Source: Deltaproteobacteria bacterium (GTDB taxonomy: Bacteria; Desulfobacterota; JBBIRW01). Taken from it: 64,000 nt of DNA. This document shows, piece after piece, positions 6,166-48,409 of this stretch; positions within the stretch are counted from its first letter, which is position 1, and every line of letters starts with the position of its first letter. The stretch spans positions 1,707 to 65,706 of the forward strand of contig JBBIRW010000005.1 of the NCBI GenBank assembly GCA_037441565.1. The letters are read 5' to 3'. The translations under genes and the position numbers were made by a program. Under the pieces are notes generated by a model. That model was not told where the DNA came from, searched no databases, and was given only the letters and a program-made list of their open reading frames with translations.

Positions 6166-7401
6166 TTATTTCACTTCCTCCCTGATCGTGGGCTTCTTGC
6201 AGATAAGCACTGCAATAATGCCGAGAACAGCCATCAGTGAAAGTATCCAGAAGGCAGGCAGGAAGCTTCCATATGCAGCCCTTATCCTCGCACCGATCAT
6301 GGGCCCAAGTATACCGCCAACGCCCCATGATGTAAATATGATCGCATAATTCATTCCAACGTTCTTTGTTCCGTAGTAGTCAGCTGTGAATGCAGGCATA
6401 ACCGCAAACTCACCGCCATATGAGAATCCCACCATCGATATACCGATTGTGTACATAGTAAGTGTTGTAGCATTTCTGAGAACCACAAGCAGCCCAACAA
6501 TATAGATAATGAACGCCAATACTGCAGACCAGTTTCTACCAATCTTATCAGAAAGCGCTCCAAATGCAGGCCTTCCGAGACCATTGAAGATGGCCATTGT
6601 TCCAAGTGCACCAGCAGCCTGCGCGGGTGTTAGTCCTGCAAGCTCCTGACCCATTGGAACAGCCTGTGATATAGCCATCAGTCCTATACTCCCCCACATG
6701 AGCATGGTAAACCAGAGAAGGTATGTCTGGGGGTATGTCATGATCTCTGATGGTGGTACATCGATCCTCGTGGGTGCCTTAACTCCTGGAGGTGGAGCAG
6801 GTGGCTCCCATCCAGCAGGTCTCCATCCAACGGGTGGGTTCTTGAATGTTGCACCACTCAATACACAGATGATTCCGAATACAATGCCAAATACTGCAAA
6901 TGTCCCATAAACACCTATCTGCGTATTAAGGTATGTTCCAAGGGGTGCACCAATCATGGACCCCGCACCGAATCCCAGCACTGCAATGCCCGTCATTGCC
7001 CCTCTGTAGTCAGGGAACCATTTAATGAGAAGGGCAATAGGTGTCACGTAGCAGAATCCAACACCTGCACCTGCTATAACGCCGTATGCGAAATAAAGCC
7101 CCATCAATGAGGTACCTATCGCGCTTGCAAGTAAGAATCCAATACCAAGGAGCACTCCCCCTGTCATTGCAACAATCCTGGGGCCCGCCTTATCCTGCCA
7201 GCGTCCGGCAAATATCATTGCAAGGGCAAATACTGCTATTGAAATGGTAAAGGGCATGGTCGCCTCTGTAATCGACCAGCCGTGCATCTTCATAAGAGGG
7301 GTTCTGAATATGCTCCAGGTATAGAGATTACCAAGACATAATTGCATTAAAATGGCGGGAATGACAAACAACCATCGATTTGGTACTCTTTCCTCCTGCA
7401 T
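6166..7401 (-). CDS. MFS transporter, oxalate/formate antiporter (OFA) family-like
   Basis: 411 aa, 12 predicted TM helices. MFS signature loops (GRWQDKAGPR) and a central proline-rich loop. Confidence 0.75.
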   Translation of the reverse strand: MQEERVPNRWLFVIPAILMQLCLGNLYTWSIFRTPLMKMHGWSITEATMPFTISIAVFALAMIFAGRWQDKAGPRIVAMTGGVLLGIGFLLASAIGTSLMGLYFAYGVIAGAGVGFCYVTPIALLIKWFPDYRGAMTGIAVLGFGAGSMIGAPLGTYLNTQIGVYGTFAVFGIVFGIICVLSGATFKNPPVGWRPAGWEPPAPPPGVKAPTRIDVPPSEIMTYPQTYLLWFTMLMWGSIGLMAISQAVPMGQELAGLTPAQAAGALGTMAIFNGLGRPAFGALSDKIGRNWSAVLAFIIYIVGLLVVLRNATTLTMYTIGISMVGFSYGGEFAVMPAFTADYYGTKNVGMNYAIIFTSWGVGGILGPMIGARIRAAYGSFLPAFWILSLMAVLGIIAVLICKKPTIREEVK

Positions 7402-35042: not shown

Positions 35043-35360
35043 TTATTTCTTGTGGCACCTGTTGCAGGTTGCATTGTCGCTTGTTTTGAACGCCTTTTTA
35101 CCGTTGTGGCACTCACCACAGAACTTCCCCGCATTGAGATCAGCCATCTTCATCTTTGCCTCCCCAAACTTCATCTTGAAGATCTTTGGATGGCAATCAG
35201 CGCACTTCTGACCCTTGTTAGCATGAACCTTTCCATCAAATATCACCTTTCCAGCATCACCATCTTTCCACTCGAGGGTCTTTCCAGAACCTACTGCCAG
35301 GGCTGAAGTTGTAAAAGCAATGAGGAATATCACTGCAAATAACGAAATCGTCCTCATCAT
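35043..35360 (-). CDS. Periplasmic triheme cytochrome c7 (PpcA-like, cytochrome c3 superfamily)
   Basis: Signal peptide. Three CxxCH motifs (CADCH, CGECH, CNRCH) in an ~80-aa mature domain with bis-His spacing. Confidence 0.8.
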   Translation of the reverse strand: MMRTISLFAVIFLIAFTTSALAVGSGKTLEWKDGDAGKVIFDGKVHANKGQKCADCHPKIFKMKFGEAKMKMADLNAGKFCGECHNGKKAFKTSDNATCNRCHKK

Positions 35361-35937: not shown

Positions 35938-37308
35938 ATGATTGAGAGAAATCCAAAATCGGGCTTTCTGGAGTATAAAGAGAAGTTTGAGCTGAAGGAT
36001 ATTCCTGAACCAAATCTCCTCCGTGACATGTTCCCCTTCACGGAAATTCCAAGGATCACTTTTGACAACTTCATGGTCATGCCTGAGCTCCCCTCTGAGA
36101 TATGGATAACTGATACCACATTCAGGGATGGTCAGCAGGCAAGACCCCCTCTCACAGTGAAACAGATAGTTGACATCTATGACATGCTCCATAAGCTTAG
36201 TGGGCCGAATGGTGTCATCCGTCAGTGTGAATTCTTCCTCTATACGGAAAAGGACAGGGAGGCAGTGAGAAAGTGCCTGGAAAAGGGGTATCAGTATCCT
36301 GAAGTGACGGGATGGATAAGGGCAGTTGCGGCAGATTTCAAGCTTGTTAAGGACATGGGTCTAAAGGAGACCGGGATCCTCACATCCATCTCTGACTACC
36401 ATATCTTTCACAAGCTTAAAAAGAGCAGAAGAAAGGCTATTGATGATTATATTGCGCTTGTTAAAGAGGCAGCTGCTGCTGGTATGAAACAGGTAAGATG
36501 TCATCTTGAAGACCTCACAAGGGCAGACTTCTTTGGATGCGTTGTCCCTTACGTTCAGGAACTGATGAAGGTATCTGAAGAGGCAAAGATGCCAGTAAAA
36601 ATAAGACTTTGCGACACCATGGGATATGGTGTGCCCTGGCCATTTGCATCCCTTCCAAGGAGCGTTCCAAAGCTTGTCTGGGGTCTCAGACACTATTGTG
36701 GGGTCCCGCCTGAGAGACTCGAATGGCACGGTCATAACGACTTCCATCTTGTGCTTGCCAACGGGACAGCTGCATGGCTCTATGGTTGTTCAGCACTCAA
36801 CTGCACACTTCTCGGATTTGGTGAAAGAACAGGTAATCCACCCCTTGAAGGTGCTGTAATAACCTATGTGGAGCTCACCGGGAGTGAAAATGGCATGAAC
36901 CTCCATATGATAACAGAAATCGCAAAATACATGGAAAAGGAGTGCGGCTATCTTATCCCACCCTCCATGCCCTTTGTGGGTCAGAACTTCAACGTCACCA
37001 TGGCCGGGATACATGCTGACGGTATCATAAAAGACCCCGAGATCTACAACATCTTTGATACGGAGAAGATCCTCAACAGGCCCTTTGGTGTTAATATTAC
37101 AGATAAAACAGGACTTGCAGGGATTGCCTTCTGGATAAATCATCGCCTCGGCCTTAAAGGGGACAAACGCATTCCTAAATCCCATCCAGGGATTGCAAAG
37201 ATCGAGGAGTGGGTGCAGGAGCAGTACAAGATTGGAAGAAACACGGCAATTTCACCAGAGGAGCTCGAGGAGCAGGCAAGGAAGTGGCTCCCTGAATATT
37301 TCAAATAA
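35938..37308 (+). CDS. Homocitrate/2-isopropylmalate/Re-citrate synthase family (HMGL-like aldolase) protein
   Basis: WITDTTFRDGQQ catalytic N-terminal motif preceded by a ~50-aa extension, 456 aa. HxH metal-ligand region (WHGHNDFH). Size and N-terminal extension resemble clostridial Re-citrate synthase. Confidence 0.7.
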   Translation: MIERNPKSGFLEYKEKFELKDIPEPNLLRDMFPFTEIPRITFDNFMVMPELPSEIWITDTTFRDGQQARPPLTVKQIVDIYDMLHKLSGPNGVIRQCEFFLYTEKDREAVRKCLEKGYQYPEVTGWIRAVAADFKLVKDMGLKETGILTSISDYHIFHKLKKSRRKAIDDYIALVKEAAAAGMKQVRCHLEDLTRADFFGCVVPYVQELMKVSEEAKMPVKIRLCDTMGYGVPWPFASLPRSVPKLVWGLRHYCGVPPERLEWHGHNDFHLVLANGTAAWLYGCSALNCTLLGFGERTGNPPLEGAVITYVELTGSENGMNLHMITEIAKYMEKECGYLIPPSMPFVGQNFNVTMAGIHADGIIKDPEIYNIFDTEKILNRPFGVNITDKTGLAGIAFWINHRLGLKGDKRIPKSHPGIAKIEEWVQEQYKIGRNTAISPEELEEQARKWLPEYFK

Positions 37309-37312
37309 GGGA

Positions 37313-37345
37313 AAAGGGCATCCCCTCGGGGATGCCCTTTTTTAT
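37313..37345 (+). terminator. Rho-independent terminator after the synthase gene
   Basis: GGGCATCCCC TCG GGGGATGCCC stem followed by TTTTTTAT. Confidence 0.6.
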
Positions 37346-37375
37346 GACCAGAAATATCTTCCTGAGAAGAATTTT

Positions 37376-38443
37376 ATGCTATCCCGTGGAAAAATTTTGC
37401 AATCATTAATAATAATCCTCATACTTCTCCTCACAAATAGTTATTCCTGGGCATTGCTACCCATCCAGAAATGCCTGATATGTCATGGCAAAAGGGATTT
37501 TAAAAAGACTTACCCTGATGGAAAGGTAAAGCCATTATATGTGGACCCATTGATCATAGAAAAATCTGTTCACTCAAAAAAGATATGTACGGACTGCCAC
37601 TTTGATGCAGTTGAAATCCCTCATAGTAAGACTCCAGAAAGGGTTCAGTGCACAAGATGCCACTACAAGGGAAATCCTGAAGGTGCACCGCAATCAGATG
37701 CATATCTTGAATACAGGGAGAGCATCCATGGAAGGGCTGTAACTGCAGGCAATGCAGCAGCACCTGTATGTCAGGATTGCCATGGCACACATGACATACT
37801 TCATACGAAAAACCCACTGTCAAGGGTATCCCACGGAAGGGTGGCTGAGACATGTGGCAGATGTCATATGAGTATCTTTGCCCAGTACAGAAGCAGCATC
37901 CATGGTGTTGCCCTCTACGAAAGGAAGATACCTGAAGCGCCTGACTGCACAAGCTGTCATGGTGAGCACGGGATAAGATCACCGAAGGACCCAACATCAC
38001 CTGTGTATCCAACAAAGGTTACAAAAACCTGCTCCTCCTGTCATGAGGAAGAGGGGATTGTCGGTAAATACGGGATAAGAACGGAGCAGGTTGAGACTTA
38101 TAAAGAGAGCTTCCATGGTATTGCCATAAGATATGGTGCAAGGACGGTTGCAAACTGTGCAAGTTGTCACGGCGTCCATGACATAAGGCCGCCTGAAGAT
38201 CCGCTCTCCTCCGTATATATAAAGAACATCCCGCAGACATGCGGGAAATGCCATCCAGGTGCAAATATAAACTATGCGAGGGGGAAGATCCATGTGAATC
38301 CAAAAAAGAAGGAGTCAGGGATTGTCTACTGGGTCTCACTCTTCTTTAAATACTTTACATTTACGGTGATCCTTTCACTCATCGCCCATATATTCCTTGA
38401 TCTTTACAGAAGGGTCCAGGAATTGAGGGAAAAAAGAACCTGA
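37376..38443 (+). CDS. Nonahaem c-type cytochrome with C-terminal membrane anchor (CbcA-like)
   Basis: Signal peptide. Nine CxxCH motifs, several in the paired CxxCHGxHDI style with recurring SxHG. A C-terminal TM helix [25 protein letters not shown]. Confidence 0.8.
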
Positions 38444-38453
38444 TGGTGGAAAG

Positions 38454-39377
38454 ATGGATAAAGAAAAAAGGAAAGAGGTATTAAATCTGGAAGAGATTGC
38501 AAGAGAGATCGAGGAGGAGATCCTCAAGGAGCATGATAGGGAGATAACAGAGGAGTTACGGAATGAATTAAGAAAAATGGTAAGGGAAAGGGTGCTGCAA
38601 GGGGTAAGCAGTGAAATCCCATCCATTATTGAAGAGATAAAGAGAAAAAGGGGGATCGAAATCGAAGAGCACAGGAGGAAGGAGCACATTCAGGAAGAGG
38701 AGTTCCTCCGCTTCAACCTCCACTTCAGGATCCAGCACATGATCCTTTTTACCAGCGTAATAATCCTCATCCTTACAGGGCTTCCCCTCAGGTATCCGGA
38801 TTTTGAACCGCTTTCAGACCTCATCTGGCTCCTTGGAGGGATTGAATATTCAAGGGTCCTCCATAGGATAGGTGCTGCAGGCCTCATACTCGTTGCCATA
38901 TATCATACCCTTTATACCATCCTCCATCCTGATGGCAGGAGGGATTTTCTGCTTCTGATCCCAACACCAAAAGACTTCAAGGACTTCTATTTGCAGATCA
39001 ACTATTTCCTTGGCAGATCAAAGGAAAGACCGAAATTTGGAAGATTCAGTTATATAGAAAAATTTGACTACTGGGCTGTTTACTGGGGTTGTGTTATTAT
39101 GATCGGCTCTGGCCTTCCCCTATGGTTTGAAGAGATCTCCCTCAGGTTTCTTCCAAAATTCATCCTTGATATTTCCAAGGAGGCACACAGTGATGAGGCA
39201 CTTCTTGCGACCCTTGCCATAGTGATATGGCACTTCTACAATGTCCACTTCAATCCCGATAGATTCCCCATGAGCTGGACCTGGTGGACGGGGAGGATAT
39301 CAAAGCACGAGATGATGAAGGAACATCCTCTTGAATATGAAGAGATGATGGCAAAGAGGGGGAAGAAGGGGGATTAA
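38454..39377 (+). CDS. Dihaem b-type cytochrome membrane subunit (HydC/FdnI Ni_hydr_CYTB family, CbcB-like) with charged N-terminal extension
   Basis: Four TM helices with conserved His ([30 protein letters not shown]) and the C-terminal [14 protein letters not shown] tail. A ~95-aa Glu/Arg/Lys-rich N-terminal extension. Confidence 0.75.
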
Positions 39378-39380
39378 GAG

Positions 39381-41459
39381 ATGAGTTATATTCGCGAGAT
39401 CTCCTCACTCATAAAGGATTTTGTATCAAGTCTCTGGGCACTTATTAAGAGACATAAAAAAGCATCACTTCTACTTGTAGGTATTATCATTACGCTTTTC
39501 TTAATCTTCAATGCCTCCTTCTATGTTCTCTCCTACATCCCCAGGTCCTGCATTATCTGCCATTATATGGATCCATACTATAAGCAGTGGGCAACATCAA
39601 GGCATAACAACATCAGCTGCATAAGATGCCATCCTTTCAGACCTGCTTTCATCACGGTTGCAACAATTAAATATCTAACGGGCATTTACAATCCCAGACC
39701 TCATGCCATAGTTGAGGACAGGAGCTGCCTTCAATCAGGATGCCATCCCGAGAGACTGCTTGAGGGAAAGGTTGCATTTAAAAATAATATAATCTTCGAT
39801 CATAAACAGCACGTTGGGACAATAAAAAGGGGGGAAAGACTCAAATGTGCATCATGCCATGCACAGATCGTTCAGGGAAAGCATATCTCTGTTGATGAAA
39901 GGGTGTGTTTCCTCTGTCATTTCAAAGGCGCACCCGCAGGGACAGCAATGACGGGTTGTCCATCCTGTCATGGGACTCCTGCAAAGGCTGTTAAACATGA
40001 GGGGTTCGTCTTTAATCATGATCCATATATAAAGATGGGAGTAAGGTGTAATCAGTGTCACATAGAGGTATCCAGAGGACAGGGATCTGTGCTTGAGGAA
40101 AGATGTTTCTCCTGTCATGTCGAGAGGACAGAGAAATATAAAGACCCTATTTTACTCCATCAGGTCCATGTAACAAAAAGGAATTATGAGTGTTTTAGCT
40201 GCCACGAAGAGATAATCCACAGGAGTATAAGATTTGTTCGAACGCTGGAAGTAAAATGCCAGTCATGTCATGAAACCCTTCATAACATGCAGATGCAGAT
40301 GTATATGGGTGTTGGTGCAAAGGGTGTTTCCGATACACCAAGTATAATGTTTGCAACACAGGTTTCATGCGAGGGCTGCCATCTGAAATCTGTTGAAAAA
40401 ACAGGCATCATGAGGGATCGTAGTAGGCATATACAGATCATAAGGAATTCATGTGTTTCATGCCATGGCAAGTCATACGCAGGTATGGTTGACACCTGGA
40501 TTCAGGAATCAGATCGCGTGTTCCAGCAGGTATCGCAATTTGTTAATTATGCTGATGAAATCATCAAAAACTATCCAGAGAAACAGAAAAGGGTTCGTGA
40601 GGCAAGGGATCTTATAAGGGATGCAAAATACAATCTCGTATTTATAAAAGATGGTAAAGCCGCACATAATGTGCAATACGCATTGAGGATCCTTGCAACA
40701 GTATGGGAACAGGCATCCCTTGCACTGAAAGCAGTAAATGCATCATACACGGTTGATAAACCAGAACTCATAAAATCACCCTCAGTCTACTGCAACACAT
40801 TATGCCACAGCAGGATTATCCCGGCTTCCAATGTTTCCTTTAAGGATATGGCAATAAAGTTTCCCCATCATCTACATTCAAATCAGATGGGTATTGAGTG
40901 CACACAATGCCATCCGGCTAAAAAGCACAGAGCAGGTATTGTTAATAAAAAGGGGTGTAAAGATTGTCATCATACACCACAGACAGCTACATGCAGGGGA
41001 TGCCACCCTTATCAGGATGCCATCTATCATGGGAATATGAATATTCTTGGTATCAAGGCGTCTCCAGACATAATGGCAAAAGGTGTTTCCTGCAGGGAAT
41101 GCCATGAGCTTAAGGAAGGCAAACATACGATTGATCTCATTTCGGCAAGATGCGTTTCATGTCATAATAAAGAGTACAGGGATCTACTCAATTCGTGGAT
41201 AAGAGAAATTAATGAATCGCAGGGAGCTGTTGAAATAAAGATTTCTCAGTTAAGAGAAAAACTGGGCTTACTCCGAAAGGCAGGTCTTGATACATCATCC
41301 TATGAAAAAACCTTATCAGAAATTGAGCATTCAATATCACTTTTGAAGAGGGCGAAGGGTGTGCACAATTACGGATTCTCAATGCAGGTTATTTCCAGCG
41401 CACGTGATTCCCTGGACAGATCCATTGTTGAGATACAGAAACAATTAACACAGAGGTAG
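39381..41459 (+). CDS. NapC/NirT-type membrane-anchored multihaem c-type cytochrome (about 18 haem motifs)
   Basis: N-terminal TM helix followed immediately by CIICH...CIRCH, the NapC/NirT quinol-dehydrogenase pattern. Sixteen more CxxCH or CxxxCH motifs across 692 aa. Confidence 0.8.
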   Translation: MSYIREISSLIKDFVSSLWALIKRHKKASLLLVGIIITLFLIFNASFYVLSYIPRSCIICHYMDPYYKQWATSRHNNISCIRCHPFRPAFITVATIKYLTGIYNPRPHAIVEDRSCLQSGCHPERLLEGKVAFKNNIIFDHKQHVGTIKRGERLKCASCHAQIVQGKHISVDERVCFLCHFKGAPAGTAMTGCPSCHGTPAKAVKHEGFVFNHDPYIKMGVRCNQCHIEVSRGQGSVLEERCFSCHVERTEKYKDPILLHQVHVTKRNYECFSCHEEIIHRSIRFVRTLEVKCQSCHETLHNMQMQMYMGVGAKGVSDTPSIMFATQVSCEGCHLKSVEKTGIMRDRSRHIQIIRNSCVSCHGKSYAGMVDTWIQESDRVFQQVSQFVNYADEIIKNYPEKQKRVREARDLIRDAKYNLVFIKDGKAAHNVQYALRILATVWEQASLALKAVNASYTVDKPELIKSPSVYCNTLCHSRIIPASNVSFKDMAIKFPHHLHSNQMGIECTQCHPAKKHRAGIVNKKGCKDCHHTPQTATCRGCHPYQDAIYHGNMNILGIKASPDIMAKGVSCRECHELKEGKHTIDLISARCVSCHNKEYRDLLNSWIREINESQGAVEIKISQLREKLGLLRKAGLDTSSYEKTLSEIEHSISLLKRAKGVHNYGFSMQVISSARDSLDRSIVEIQKQLTQR

Positions 41460-41624: not shown

Positions 41625-42287
41625 TCAGTGATCTATCTTAATTATTCCTCTCTGTATTGCATATTTTATAAGGGCTGCCCTTGAGTGTATTCCCAGTTTT
41701 TCACTGATGTTGCTTTGATGTGCAATAACAGTTTTTACACTCAAATTTAGAAGATCTGCTATCTCTTTGTGCGTATATCCCTCTGCAATAAGTCTTAAAA
41801 CCTGCTTTTCCCTATCAGTTAGCCTTTCATAAGGATCCTCCATCTCCATCTTTTTATCCAGATAAGTAGCAACTACTTCAGAAGTAATGGATGGATAGAG
41901 ATAGATCTCCCCTCTACTAACAGCTCTTATTGCAGAGATAAGGTCACTTCCCACAGCCTTTTTAAGGATATAGCCGGAAACACCTGCCTTCAAAAATCTC
42001 GAAATATACTCCCTGTCATCATACTGTGTCAGAACAAGGATCTTTGTTTCAGGTGAAATCCTTTTTATCTCAACTGTTGCCTCAAGTCCTCCAAGTTTTG
42101 GCATATTTATATCCATTATCACCACATCAGGCTGAAGTCTTTCGGCCTTTTTAATGGCCTCTATCCCATCAGATGCTTCACCTATAACCTCTATGTCGTC
42201 GCAAAGCTTGAGAAAGGCAGCAATACCTTCTCTGACTAATGCATGATCATCAGCTATTAGAACCTTTATCTTACGCATTCGATCCAT
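41625..42287 (-). CDS. NarL/LuxR-family response regulator
   Basis: Receiver (VLIADDH, D in VVIMDINMP) plus a LuxR HTH (LTDREKQVLRLIAEGYTHKEIA). Confidence 0.9.
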   Translation of the reverse strand: MDRMRKIKVLIADDHALVREGIAAFLKLCDDIEVIGEASDGIEAIKKAERLQPDVVIMDINMPKLGGLEATVEIKRISPETKILVLTQYDDREYISRFLKAGVSGYILKKAVGSDLISAIRAVSRGEIYLYPSITSEVVATYLDKKMEMEDPYERLTDREKQVLRLIAEGYTHKEIADLLNLSVKTVIAHQSNISEKLGIHSRAALIKYAIQRGIIKIDH

Positions 42288-44109
42288 CCTGATATCTGAC
42301 AGGTATATAAAGGCTTACTGTACAACCTTCTCCTGGTGCAGATCTTATCTCAAGCTCCCCACCTATAAGGGATGCCCTCTCCTTCATACCCATAATTCCG
42401 AGACCCCTACCATCCCTGAGATGACGACCTTCCCTATCAAAAAGAGATTCTATATCAAATCCCCTTCCGTCATCCTTTATTTCCATTCTTAACATATTTT
42501 CGTTGGCATCTATATTAAGGATAACATTTTCTGCATCCGAATGCTTTGAGATGTTAACAACAGCCTCCTGGATTATCCTGAACAGTGCAATCTCTATCTC
42601 TGGTGGAAACCTTTTCTCCTTCAGTCCCTTAATATTAAAGAAATAGTTTATCCCCTTTTCACCAAGATGGGTGTCAAAAAGCCATTTTATTGCTGCCTCA
42701 AGTCCAAGATCATCTATCATCGATGGCCTCAGGTTCTGTATTACGCTTAAAACCCCCTCCCATGCCCTCAATACGATATCCCTTAATTCTTCTGTCTTCT
42801 CCTTACCAAATTTTTCGGGATAAAGTCTGTACATATCAATCCTCATAAGTATGGCAGAAAGACTCTGCAGTATCTCATCATGGAGCTCTCTTGCAATCCT
42901 CTTTCTCTCCTCTTCCTGTGAACTTATTATCTTTTTTAGCAGGCTTTCAACCCTTTTCTGGCTCTCCTCAATCTGTCTTGTTCTTTCCCTCACACGATCC
43001 TCTAACTCAAGACTGTATTTCTTTATACTTTCCATGGATTCAAGCAGCCTTACCCTCATGATCTCAAAACTCTTTGCAAGCATTCCTATCTCATCGCTTC
43101 CATGATGCACAATGGGTTTTTCCAGCTCCCCACGGGCTATCCTCCCTGTTGCCTTTATAAGCTCCCTCACAGGATTCAGAATGCTCCTGTTGATCCCTAT
43201 CGTTAAGATAAAGGCGGTCAGAATAAACACAATGCCCATTGCAATAAATGTCTTTTTGAGTTTTTTTGCAGGTGAAAAAACATTCTCAACAGATTCCTGA
43301 ATCGATATCCCCCATGATGCGCTCTCCAGTGGCACAAATACAAGCATATTCGTAGTAATTGTTTTTTTACTGCCACTTTCGTGGCATTCATGGCAGGTTG
43401 TAACAAGCTCCTTTTTTGCATTTATTATTTTGCTGAAGTATTTATCATGATCACAACATATCAATACCCTTACAGGATCCGATGAAGCAATAACAACACC
43501 ATTTGCATCCATGATATCTATAAAAACATTTTTATTCTTTCCAACATCTGTTAATCCCAGTTCGTAAGAAAGGGTGGGATTGGTGGGATCTATCTCCCCA
43601 CCAACAGCACCGATAATGTTACCATTCCTGTCCTTAAGAGGCACGAGGGCAAAAATAACCTTTTTATTAAGGGGTTCAACAGTGTAAATATTCGATATCA
43701 CAGGCCTCCCTGTACCAATAATCCTTCGTATGGGCTCGACGCCGAGCAGATTCGTTCCAAAATCTCTCATCCTCTCAGGATAGTCGAGGATTAAGTTTCC
43801 GTTTCTGTCAAGAAGGAACACACCATCGGTAAAGAGGGAATATCTGTATGCAATACTCAATGCTTCCCTTTCAGGGTTAAAGTCATTGTCTGCAAGATCT
43901 ATACTTCCGGAAAGGGATATATCATAGAGGCGATTAAGGTTTGTTTTCAGTTTTTCTTCGATATTATTCCTGATAAGCCTCGCTATCTCGAACTTCCTTT
44001 CTATCGAATGCTCTATTGTCTTCTGTATTATGTAATAGCTTGCCAGTGCGAATACAGTAAGGATAATACCCATCCATAATGTAAGGGCTATGGCAATCCT
44101 CTTTCTCAA
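42271..44109 (-). CDS. Sensor histidine kinase (HisKA_3/NarX-type) with periplasmic sensor domain carrying a CxxCH haem-binding motif
   Basis: TM1 at residues ~5-28, a ~255-aa periplasmic domain, TM2, HAMP, the H-box ARELHDEIL and HATPase_c. The periplasmic domain contains TTCHECH (codons at 43381..43395) plus ICCDHD. Confidence 0.85.
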   Translation of the reverse strand: MRKRIAIALTLWMGIILTVFALASYYIIQKTIEHSIERKFEIARLIRNNIEEKLKTNLNRLYDISLSGSIDLADNDFNPEREALSIAYRYSLFTDGVFLLDRNGNLILDYPERMRDFGTNLLGVEPIRRIIGTGRPVISNIYTVEPLNKKVIFALVPLKDRNGNIIGAVGGEIDPTNPTLSYELGLTDVGKNKNVFIDIMDANGVVIASSDPVRVLICCDHDKYFSKIINAKKELVTTCHECHESGSKKTITTNMLVFVPLESASWGISIQESVENVFSPAKKLKKTFIAMGIVFILTAFILTIGINRSILNPVRELIKATGRIARGELEKPIVHHGSDEIGMLAKSFEIMRVRLLESMESIKKYSLELEDRVRERTRQIEESQKRVESLLKKIISSQEEERKRIARELHDEILQSLSAILMRIDMYRLYPEKFGKEKTEELRDIVLRAWEGVLSVIQNLRPSMIDDLGLEAAIKWLFDTHLGEKGINYFFNIKGLKEKRFPPEIEIALFRIIQEAVVNISKHSDAENVILNIDANENMLRMEIKDDGRGFDIESLFDREGRHLRDGRGLGIMGMKERASLIGGELEIRSAPGEGCTVSLYIPVRYQDGSNA

Positions 44110-44208
44110 GTTCTTACCTTCCCCGACCTTTAAGATCCTGATAATATATCAATTTAAATTATAAGTTATCCGATGAAAAAAGCCAGAAGGGCAGCAACAT
44201 CTGCCCCA

Positions 44209-44961
44209 TCACTCGGAAGAATGAACTACTTCCTTATGTGGATGGCCACCAGCAATCTCCAGGATTTCATCTATTTTCTTTCCCTCGATCCTCGCAAGCT
44301 CTAAGGGGTGCTCGTGAAGCATCCTCTCCCTTGATATATATCCCGTGAATATACATGTGTCTATGGGGAATACCTCGGGGCTGAAGACTGAATTGTAAAT
44401 ATGCCATGTAACGATAACCAGAAATGCAAGGAGTGCTTCATTTGTATGAGCTGCCTTTGCAGCAGGTATAACCTCTCCAGGAAGAAATCTTGCAAATACT
44501 GTTGGATACCAGAGTATAAACCCTGTAATTATCATGATCAATCCACCCAGAATAACACCCCAGTATTCGAATTTCTGTCTGTAGTCGTATCTATCACAAA
44601 GTGCGGGATAATCTGTGAAGCCAAAGTAGTATCTGAGATTTGTTATTGCATCGGTAAAATCTTTCCTTGTAATAACCATTGAAGCAGGCCATTTCTTAAA
44701 TATTACACCGAACGATCCAACAACAATGTGCTGGAGAACAAGGATTGAAAATAGAAGTCCCATATAGCGATGTATTATCCTTGTCATATTTATCCCACCC
44801 ATCTTCATTATTATCCAGTGGGATAACTCTAAGTTATAAAATTTTTGTGAAAGTCCGGTGATAACGAGAATTACAAAAACTATTGCATTAAGCCAGTGTT
44901 CAATGATCCTTAGGATATGGAATCTCTTTATGTATATAGTTTCCTTCTCATTTTTTCTCAT
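44209..44961 (-). CDS. Dihaem b-type cytochrome membrane subunit (Ni_hydr_CYTB family, CbcB-like)
   Basis: Paralogue of 38454..39377, with the same His-containing helices and the HEHPLE tail. Confidence 0.8.
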   Translation of the reverse strand: MRKNEKETIYIKRFHILRIIEHWLNAIVFVILVITGLSQKFYNLELSHWIIMKMGGINMTRIIHRYMGLLFSILVLQHIVVGSFGVIFKKWPASMVITRKDFTDAITNLRYYFGFTDYPALCDRYDYRQKFEYWGVILGGLIMIITGFILWYPTVFARFLPGEVIPAAKAAHTNEALLAFLVIVTWHIYNSVFSPEVFPIDTCIFTGYISRERMLHEHPLELARIEGKKIDEILEIAGGHPHKEVVHSSE

Positions 44962-46889: not shown

Positions 46890-47417
46890 TTATTGACGAA
46901 CACTCTCTGCTATCCTTAATAGTTCGATGGGGGTTGATTTCATTGAAATGGTCATCCTGAATCCATCCTCAGTCCAGCTTATTTTGCTGCATGCCTCCTC
47001 ATCCTCACAAATACCTACCAAAAGATCAGCCTCCTTTCCTTTCAGGCTATATTTAACACTTTCCCTTACCCTTACGATTCTAATCTCCCTTTCCTCAGTA
47101 ATATGCCTGTTGAGTTCTACCTGGTATATGATCATGACAACCTCACCACTGCCACCATGCCTGAATTTTAAAACAACTGCCTTATAGGGCTTCCCCTGCG
47201 CAAGTATCTCCGATGGAGGCCAGTTAATTCCCTGAGGAAAATATGATGGAACGTATATATGATCTATCTTAATCCTATGTTTAGCCTCCTCGATACTCCT
47301 GTACCTCTGGAGAGTTTCCCTGTTAATGATGGATGGGATAAAATTAATCACTTTAAGTGATATAATCAAAATTAAAAGCATAAACAAAAAAATCAGGATG
47401 TTTAAAGCCTTTTTCAT
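46890..47417 (-). CDS. Hypothetical membrane-anchored protein
   Basis: 175 aa, N-terminal TM helix. It follows an M56-type peptidase gene with a 4-nt overlap. Confidence 0.4.
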   Translation of the reverse strand: MKKALNILIFLFMLLILIISLKVINFIPSIINRETLQRYRSIEEAKHRIKIDHIYVPSYFPQGINWPPSEILAQGKPYKAVVLKFRHGGSGEVVMIIYQVELNRHITEEREIRIVRVRESVKYSLKGKEADLLVGICEDEEACSKISWTEDGFRMTISMKSTPIELLRIAESVRQ

Positions 47418-48409
47418 ATTATGAAGTAGTTTATCAAAGTTACTGCAATCAGAGTTAATATAAATTCAAACCATCTCTCTCCATCCTGATCAATTCTATC
47501 CCTTGAAAGCCTTTCTTTTCTCCTCTTTATTACCATTCTATGTGTGTATTCCTGGACCCCCCTTTTTAATGAGTATATACCACCTGTATTTTCAACCCCT
47601 CCTGTCTCCCTCATATATATTTTCTCCAATGCAGATGCTAATTCCAGCGACCTTCCTGTCATCCTCACAGCAGCATCATCACATATCATCTCCTCCTCCT
47701 CAAGCATCCTCCGAAATTCAATGAGAATAACAGGGTTGAAGAAATTGATTATTCTCAAAAAAAACATAATGAACAAATAGGGTCTCTTAGACCTTTTAAT
47801 GTGAGCCCTTTCATGGCCTATAACAGCATCAAGCTCATCCTTTGTAAGGGTATTAATCAATTTTCCCGAAAGATAAATGGCGCTATTCTTACCAATCCTC
47901 GAATAAAGGGTGAAATCCTTATCATCAATGATGATCAAACGCACTTTCCCATTTAAATATTTCAATTCATTTACCCTTCCATCCTCCTCCATTTTTTCTC
48001 CTGCATACTTCCTTGTCTCGTATATATGCCTGATGATCGGGATCAATTCCTGAAAGATAAAGATAATGGATGTGACTGCCAGAATAACAAGAAAAAGCCA
48101 TTGCATGGATATCATTCCCCATAAATTAATGCTAAAAAAGCTTGTGCTGTCAAAAAGGGAGTCTGCCCTGAATGAAAGGCATGTTCTATAAGGATCTATT
48201 ATGTGATAGAAATAAAAGGAAAAGACAGGAAATGCAATAACAATGAATCGAAACCTCTGTGAAACAGAAGGATCTGTTATCTTCCATATGCTGATGGAGT
48301 AATTCACAATCAGTGCCGTAATTAAAGAGTGAAAAAACGATTGCGAAACATACATTCCAATACTGGAGGTAAATATATACTGCATCCCCATAGTCCATTC
48401 CATTTTCAT
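47414..48409 (-). CDS. M56/M48-type zinc metallopeptidase membrane protein (BlaR1-like sensor/peptidase family)
   Basis: Multiple TM helices. HExxH motif IGHERAHIKR within a cytoplasmic loop. Confidence 0.65.
   Translation of the reverse strand: MKMEWTMGMQYIFTSSIGMYVSQSFFHSLITALIVNYSISIWKITDPSVSQRFRFIVIAFPVFSFYFYHIIDPYRTCLSFRADSLFDSTSFFSINLWGMISMQWLFLVILAVTSIIFIFQELIPIIRHIYETRKYAGEKMEEDGRVNELKYLNGKVRLIIIDDKDFTLYSRIGKNSAIYLSGKLINTLTKDELDAVIGHERAHIKRSKRPYLFIMFFLRIINFFNPVILIEFRRMLEEEEMICDDAAVRMTGRSLELASALEKIYMRETGGVENTGGIYSLKRGVQEYTHRMVIKRRKERLSRDRIDQDGERWFEFILTLIAVTLINYFII

Follow-up and report, generated by a model that had tools for sequence, protein, structure and literature searches.

Does the sensor histidine kinase encoded in a stretch of 64,000 nucleotides of contig JBBIRW010000005.1 (GenBank assembly GCA_037441565.1, Deltaproteobacteria bacterium; the whole stretch is hereafter called the window) carry a c-type haem in the domain that it exposes to the periplasm? 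An earlier examination of this DNA from its letters, hereafter the sequence-only reading, had noticed a CxxCH motif inside a domain of about 255 residues lying between two transmembrane helices (TM1 and TM2) and proposed that a covalently bound haem could make this protein a direct redox or ligand sensor. The present analysis supports this interpretation. We consider it rather likely that this histidine kinase is a haem-based sensor of a hitherto undescribed type and, from sequence, structural model and genomic context, we infer with good confidence that one haem is covalently attached to its sensor domain.

The motif, its fold and its conservation

The motif (positions 43381..43395) reads CHECH on the minus strand and corresponds to residues 239-243; it is the only CxxCH of the whole kinase. 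The ICCDHD that had been noticed upstream of TTCHECH spans residues 217-222, its two adjacent Cys being residues 218 and 219, and 14 residues separate these two segments. Hydropathy gives a TM1-TM2 loop of ~254 residues, in agreement with the size initially proposed. Since the N-terminus contains RKR and a HAMP domain directly follows TM2, this loop lies outside the cytoplasm and the motif is periplasmic, as the proposal implied. Such a CXXCH in an exported segment, here between TM1 and TM2 with HAMP beyond TM2, is one feature expected of a c-type haem protein. Another is that the genome also encodes the cytochrome c maturation machinery, which the source genome does, with four Cytochrom_C_asm (PF01578) matches as well as ResB (PF05140) matches over the cut-offs. 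In 100,000 shuffles of the sensor composition (4 Cys and 4 His in 256 residues), a CxxCH appeared with a frequency of 0.0007; it is the conservation in relatives described below that shows that the motif is not due to chance. An artefact of frame or of chance was considered separately and was ruled out, the open reading frame (ORF) being a complete kinase with conserved homologues.

All the Pfam domains of the kinase exceed their cut-offs, the dCache_1 (PF02743) match spanning residues 41-233. The HAMP, HisKA_3 and HATPase_c domains, together with the adjacent regulator carrying REC and GerE domains (all above the Pfam cut-offs), are those of a two-component system. The cytoplasmic part of the kinase only gave partial NCBIfam matches of the UhpB/NarQ/NarX type, all far below the cut-offs, and no NCBIfam equivalog was reached, the best one being UhpB (134 bits for a cut-off of 408). 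The sensor is present as a single copy in the source genome (1.87 Mb, 98% complete).

The structure prediction called for by the sequence-only reading gave a double Cache domain of the dCache_1 family. The AlphaFold2 model, which was computed from a 110-sequence alignment and covers residues 26-290 (model number = protein number minus 25), has a mean predicted local distance difference test score (pLDDT) of 92.8 and a predicted template modelling score (pTM) of 0.89. It displays the dCache architecture, i.e. two stacked PAS-like/PDC modules with a long N-terminal helix, located between two transmembrane helices. The dCache_1 profile scores 49.5 bits with the whole protein and 51.4 bits with the domain alone (cut-off 45), and the ESM Atlas label of the sensor is also dCache_1. 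In a Foldseek search of the PDB, the top matches are all solved double-Cache ligand-binding domains, those of PctA, Tlp3, KinD, DctB and Mlp24/37 (E ~1e-12, template modelling scores of 0.6-0.7), and an independent all-against-all structural search (VIA) gave Z scores of 15-21 over 200-240 residues to solved dCache domains. None of the solved structures is related in sequence to the sensor, the best match being ribosomal protein S6 (E 0.06). The suspicion that the fold differs from the PAS type of the Geobacter sensors was borne out, since the domain is a dCache_1 and hmmscan at E ≤ 10, with the whole sensor or with the membrane-proximal module alone, gave no match to PF11845, the family of GSU0582 and GSU0935.

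The motif is carried by the membrane-proximal module, in which DSSP delineates (in model numbers) strands 170-176 and 180-184, a helix at 197-206 and strands 210-215, 228-235 and 241-248. It occupies model residues 214-218, that is, the end of beta3 (210-215) and the beta3-beta4 loop, ahead of beta4 (228-235). This loop is the part of the model with the lowest confidence (block mean pLDDT of 80 and 82), as might be expected for a cofactor loop modelled without its cofactor.

The conservation of the motif in orthologues, which had been left to be checked, is very high. The 120 homologues listed from a search of 5.8 billion proteins (54-94% identity over the sensor) all carry exactly one CxxCH, always in the form C-H-x-C-H, and C239, H240, C242 and H243 are invariant in the 121-sequence alignment (at least 54% identity). 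Judging from this alignment, C219 alone is kept among the residues of ICCDHD (86%), position 218 being mostly a Gln.

A wider set was obtained by a HMMER search of 1.84 billion cluster representatives, which retrieved 624 proteins at E ≤ 0.001. The best 150 of these 624 proteins were compared along with the query, and 137 representatives cover at least 220 residues of the sensor. A C..CH is found at the aligned position in 95 of these 137 representatives and is lacking in the 42 others, identities ranging from 24 to 60%. Only D220, C239, H240, C242 and H243 are specific to one group (≥80% in motif-bearing and <30% in motif-less representatives): D220 is found in 87% of the former and 19% of the latter, compared to 94% and 74% for H221. 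Position 219 is usually a Ser in this wider family. The position of H240 is occupied by His in 97% of the motif-bearing representatives and by Tyr or Asn in the rest. Motif-less members have a shorter beta3-beta4 loop, from which all the residues of the motif are gone together. On a FastTree tree built without the motif columns, the presence or absence of the motif requires 13 changes, of which at least four are forced by well-supported branches, and none of 500 label shuffles gave so low a number; motif-less groups are nested among motif-bearing ones. We read this pattern as that of an old motif lost several times, with the reservation that the root of the tree is unknown and its support limited. 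Eighty-one motif-bearing representatives are at least 450 residues long, and 70 of them were scanned against Pfam for their outputs: HisKA_3 or HisKA is present in 63, and in the seven others HAMP or GAF is the last domain. These 70 proteins gave no output of the chemoreceptor or cyclase type. Besides, one clade of the wider family (P0129, P0133, P0142 and P0147; 32-41% identity) is devoid of CxxCH, but one Cys and one His remain in the loop, as C-S-H or C-R-H for example, which could be a degenerate site or the site of a different cofactor.

Genomic context of the kinase

The genes surrounding the kinase (Table 1) were compared in 80 related loci (closer alignment A2) from species-representative genomes, nearly all of them labelled as Nitrospirota or Thermodesulfovibrionales metagenome-assembled genomes. 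Where the contig leaves room for it, the cytochrome b gene is directly upstream of the kinase gene in 72 of 74 loci, and a homologue of the 476-residue cytochrome c gene precedes that of cytochrome b in 66 of 67. The regulator gene is found downstream of the kinase gene in 76 of the 80 loci, the four misses being at contig ends. The cytochrome b also matches formate dehydrogenase gamma subunits, below the cut-off, and all 13 CxxCH of the cytochrome c are invariant in 50 aligned sequences. The sequence-only reading had described the kinase as co-transcribed with this cytochrome c/b module. Its functional linkage with the cytochrome genes appears well supported by this synteny; co-transcription itself is doubtful in the source genome because of a hairpin in the 99-nucleotide gap between the cytochrome b and kinase genes.

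The conservation of the motif extends to these syntenic kinases, 75 of the 80 carrying a C..CH (CHRCH in 40, CHQCH in 11, CHVCH in 10, CHECH in five, CHSCH in four, CHHCH in two and CY.CH in three). Three other syntenic kinases have CHRCK, in loci L067, L075 and L077 (ORFs starting at 6920 in each locus), and keep both Cys and H240. As these three kinases are closely similar to one another, they represent a single evolutionary event. In NrfA, CxxCK serves as a haem c motif in which Lys is the ligand. The replacement of His by Lys with retention of both Cys and of H240 is more in keeping with haem than with zinc at this site.

A search with alignment A4 gave the 79 loci of a distant clade; every one of them is labelled Chloroflexota, and most belong to Dehalococcoidia. 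A C..CH is present within the first 340 residues of 77 of these 79 kinases, usually as CHRCH or CHTCH, and a NarL-type regulator is encoded downstream in most of these loci. A pair of cytochrome c and cytochrome b genes is found in three of them (L137, L150 and L162). PF01578 matches were found in all five Chloroflexota genomes with the kinase that were searched for this family. Among 151 incomplete genomes of one Chloroflexota class, where the sensor alone was used as query because the cytoplasmic domains dominated the whole-kinase search, 21 encode the sensor and 119 have PF01578, which is found in 20 of the 21 sensor genomes compared to 99 of the 130 others (one-sided Fisher p 0.035).

Table 1. 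Features of the kinase gene and of its neighbours, in positions of the window
Feature	Position	Strand	Basis
NarL/LuxR-type response regulator, REC + GerE; start overlaps the kinase stop by 17 nucleotides	41625..42287	minus	ORF list and Pfam
Sensor histidine kinase, 612 residues, TTG start	42271..44109	minus	TM1, dCache_1, TM2, HAMP, HisKA_3, HATPase_c (ORF and Pfam)
Cytoplasmic transmitter: HAMP (residues 306-356), HisKA_3 (401-463), HATPase_c (506-604)	42298..43194	minus	Pfam
TM2, residues 284-312, running into HAMP	43174..43260	minus	Hydropathy
Periplasmic dCache_1 sensor domain, residues 30-283	43261..44022	minus	Pfam, AlphaFold2, structural matches
Membrane-proximal Cache module, ~residues 190-283, bearing the motif	43261..43542	minus	DSSP of the model
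CHECH codons, residues 239-243; putative site of haem c attachment, with the proximal His and the two Cys for the thioether bonds	43381..43395	minus	Sequence, alignments
C219-D220-H221, mostly SDH in relatives; H221 could be a distal ligand or belong to the haem pocket	43447..43455	minus	Alignments
TM1, residues 3-29, after RKR	44023..44103	minus	Hydropathy windows
Terminator-like hairpin and T-run, just after the cytochrome b stop	44188..44207	minus	Consensus match only
Cytochrome b, Ni_hydr_CYTB; directly upstream of the kinase gene	44209..44961	minus	Pfam, NCBIfam
Multihaem cytochrome c, 476 residues, 13 CxxCH, N-terminal signal or anchor, C-terminal transmembrane helix	44972..46402	minus	Pfam, hydropathy

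Further upstream of the cytochrome genes, the segment 46412-48409 of the minus strand encodes a BlaR1/M56-type peptidase (47414-48409), a 175-residue ORF and a 116-residue membrane ORF, neither of these two ORFs having any Pfam match. This set of three genes recurs upstream in many related loci, and homologues of the 116-residue ORF adjoin the cytochrome pair in two of the Chloroflexota loci (L150 and L162). In many relatives, the small membrane ORF is separated from the 13-haem cytochrome gene by three further genes (for example L003:1974-4684, plus strand; ~2.7 kb). Their products are a c7-like cytochrome, a 4Fe-4S dicluster protein and a membrane subunit of the NrfD type, and the window has none of these three genes.

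On the other side, a second set of cytochrome genes (37193-41459, plus strand) converges on the regulator gene. It encodes a 416-residue ORF with nine CxxCH, a 307-residue cytochrome b and a 692-residue NrfH-like protein with 16 CxxCH, one Cx3CH and one Cx4CH. The true start of the 416-residue ORF is probably later than the predicted TTG, since the latter overlaps the end of an HMGL-like gene (35938-37308). A gene of the cytochrome c7 family (105 residues; 35043-35360, minus strand) lies at the edge of this cytochrome island, where it adjoins radical SAM and MnmG genes.

What the proposed haem could sense, and what else the site could be

In the haem-based reading that we favour, Sec would export the TM1-TM2 loop of the kinase and the maturation system would attach one haem to C239 and C242, with H243 as proximal ligand. 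Oxidation or reduction of this haem, or its binding of NO, CO, O2 or sulfide, would reshape the proximal module. Since this module sits directly on TM2, the change could pass through TM2 and HAMP to the HisKA_3/HATPase core, which would set the phosphorylation of the NarL-type regulator encoded by the overlapping gene; the regulator would in turn control the neighbouring cytochrome genes, its presumed targets. The signal may well be the redox state of the cytochrome pool in the periplasm, although we would put this slightly short of an even chance. A gas or another small ligand appears clearly less likely, redox sensing being favoured because of the conserved neighbours. More tentatively, covalent haem c might have been gained a second time in the Cache superfamily, in the proximal module of a dCache_1 domain, and have given rise to a large kinase family with an invariant C-H-x-C-H, found here in Chloroflexota genomes and in those of Nitrospirota type. 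In the Nitrospirota branch, the kinase would be wired to a quinol-cytochrome module made of the 13-haem cytochrome c and the cytochrome b, and would directly report electron flux or acceptor availability of the respiratory chain to the NarL-type regulator; the haem of the kinase would then exchange electrons with the 13-haem cytochrome of the quinol-cytochrome module.

Several observations weigh against the attachment of a haem or against its link with the cytochromes. All the evidence for haem comes from sequence, model and context, and AlphaFold2 models no haem. H240 (43390-43392) is invariant in close homologues and is not needed by an ordinary CxxCH site, and we found no explanation for it; together with C219, the C, H, C and H of the motif could form a metal site. 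Position 221 is an Arg in 74% of the close homologues, which leaves this subfamily with no conserved residue to propose as distal ligand, H221 being conserved at 90% or more in the wide alignment A1. The motif loop is lost, with one Cys left, through a 16-residue deletion in two syntenic kinases (loci L033 and L034, ORF starts at 6905 and 6899, respectively), which are nonetheless still encoded behind the cytochrome c and cytochrome b genes.

Other points concern the genomic linkage. In the source genome, the 99-nucleotide gap between the cytochrome b stop and the kinase start contains an AT-rich stretch and the terminator-like hairpin with its T-run (44207-44188), which separates the kinase gene from the cytochrome genes. 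This hairpin is a caution and not a finding, since terminator-like sites are no more numerous in the scanned region than in shuffles; among relatives, this gap is 5 to 297 nucleotides long (median 72), and in some of them it is only 5-9 nucleotides. In the distant Chloroflexota clade, ORFs with at least three CxxCH are found near the kinase gene in only ~22 of the 79 loci, showing that wiring to cytochromes is not general. As the C..CH is itself present in 77 of these 79 kinases, the motif appears as a trait of the wide family and tight linkage to cytochromes as a trait of the Nitrospirota branch. Finally, the association of the sensor with PF01578 in the Chloroflexota class agrees with the haem reading, although it is weak, because 79% of the class has PF01578 anyway and the genomes are incomplete.

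The best-surviving alternative, which we nevertheless consider unlikely, is that C239, H240, C242 and H243, possibly together with C219 or H221, constitute a Zn, Fe or Cu site or a CxxC thiol-disulfide switch devoid of haem, and that the kinase senses a metal or the thiol redox state of the periplasm. All four residues of C-H-x-C-H are invariant, and the best argument for such a site is the invariance of H240, which a plain haem site does not require. The other candidate residue, C219, is conserved at 86% among close homologues, but it is not kept in the wider family, where a Ser usually replaces it. The region also matches Zn_ribbon_8 (E 0.04-0.19, far below the cut-off); Cytochrom_C550 matches the sensor just as weakly (E 0.12), and such matches therefore decide nothing. 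Against a metal or thiol site, an exported Cys-x-x-Cys-His is the canonical signature of haem c, and the organism has a maturation system and many c-type cytochromes. The CHRCK variant also fits a swap of haem ligand better than a zinc site, even if it represents a single event.

It seems a little less likely still that haem c is present as a structural or electron-transfer cofactor and that the signal is a small molecule bound by the membrane-distal module, as in ordinary dCache_1 sensors. The characterised dCache_1 receptors do bind their ligands in this distal module, according to the titles of the structures and to Upadhyay 2016. The distal module is highly conserved in close homologues of the kinase, and numerous positions between residues 57 and 180 are invariant there. 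Moreover, in the preprint 10.64898/2026.02.01.703092, stand-alone proteins of another haem-bearing Cache family, sCache_heme (see below), are reported as redox proteins rather than as sensors. However, it is the proximal module that directly touches TM2, so that a cofactor there is well placed for signalling. The distal module is the same in motif-less relatives, so that the haem adds something specific, and gains and losses of the motif follow clades (the 13 changes mentioned above, reached by 0 of 500 label shuffles).

A conserved motif that is non-functional or purely structural (a disulfide, for example), in a kinase that would be an ordinary dCache chemosensor, is very improbable: the loop is indeed lost in two syntenic relatives and the motif absent from 42 of 137 representatives, but the conservation of four residues down to 24% identity and in at least two phyla is unexpected of a dispensable feature, and the two His are superfluous for a structural disulfide.

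Comparison with known systems

The CbcBA/CbcL-type quinol-cytochrome modules of Geobacter resemble the neighbours of the kinase and not the kinase itself. As in these modules, the neighbouring genes encode a multihaem cytochrome c with a C-terminal membrane helix and an FdnI-like cytochrome b, a likeness that concerns the type of genes only. To our knowledge, no dedicated two-component system with a haem dCache domain is known for the CbcBA/CbcL modules of Geobacter.

Among signal transducers, DcrA from Desulfovibrio vulgaris Hildenborough is described, in two reviews (PMC8396549 and PMC2886117, citing Fu, Wall and Voordouw 1994), as a methyl-accepting chemotaxis protein with a c-type haem that was demonstrated and with a response to oxygen or redox. 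As far as these descriptions go, both proteins are transmembrane signal transducers of anaerobes with a periplasmic CXXCH, the haem of DcrA being experimental and that of the kinase predicted. They differ in output, DcrA being a chemoreceptor, and they are likened by description only. The motif of DcrA is probably CHHCH, and the His at the second position would then be common to both.

The sensor of the kinase shares its dCache_1 fold and family, as well as its location between two transmembrane helices, with PctA, Tlp3, KinD, DctB and Mlp24/37. These proteins lack a CxxCH, and their small-molecule ligands are held non-covalently, for the most part in the distal module. Compared to ordinary dCache_1 domains, the kinase has a somewhat longer beta3-beta4 loop in its proximal module, and this loop bears the motif. 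Bacteria use Cache domains more than any other type of extracellular sensor, and these domains have so far been regarded as binders of free small molecules. If the haem reading is true, the proximal module, usually silent, would gain a sensing role. The kinase would also be a candidate sensor for matching cytochrome expression to redox in uncultured subsurface anaerobes (Nitrospirota of the Thermodesulfovibrionales type and Dehalococcoidia). The sensor domain is small and soluble, and it lends itself to heterologous expression.

The closest parallel is provided by sCache_heme (DUF3365, Tll0287-like, PF11845), whose members include GSU0582 and GSU0935 of Geobacter sulfurreducens, Tll0287 and the Pseudomonas azotoformans CHH receptor (10.64898/2026.02.01.703092; 10.64898/2026.05.25.727664). 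In the preprint of the Zhulin and Crane groups (10.64898/2026.02.01.703092), this domain is presented as the first Cache domain known to carry a covalent cofactor, its strictly conserved CXXCH lies in a short helix inserted between beta3 and beta4, and its Discussion reports the sensing of gas or small ligands for signalling sCache_heme proteins. No description of a haem-bearing dCache was found in full-text searches of the literature; the main text of the same preprint makes no real mention of a double-Cache form, and its supplementary datasets might list some.

Compared with these descriptions, the kinase has in common with sCache_heme an extracytoplasmic Cache fold, a conserved CXXCH between beta3 and beta4, and transmembrane helices with a HAMP domain leading to the output; the expected readout, sensing of redox or of an NO-type ligand, would be similar too. 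The two differ in several respects. sCache_heme is a single Cache, whereas the kinase sensor is modelled with two modules, and its model aligns with double-Cache structures over residues 1-255; the sensor matches dCache_1, and the motif is in its membrane-proximal module. The motif of the kinase is a C-H-x-C-H with an invariant His at the second position, and it is located at the end of a strand and in a loop, in a model without haem, compared to a short predicted helix in what is described of sCache_heme. The outputs of the kinase family are all histidine kinases among those seen. Structures of sCache_heme are not among the 50 matches listed in the wide structural search, which shows nothing either way. 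The absence of a PF11845 match, the double Cache and the dCache_1 match indicate that the sensor of the kinase is not a member of sCache_heme. Nevertheless, as its motif occupies the same topological place, it may work alike; this shared place could result from convergence or from very old common descent, between which the data do not tell. If the haem is confirmed, the haem branch of dCache_1 would represent, beside sCache_heme, a second and structurally different solution.

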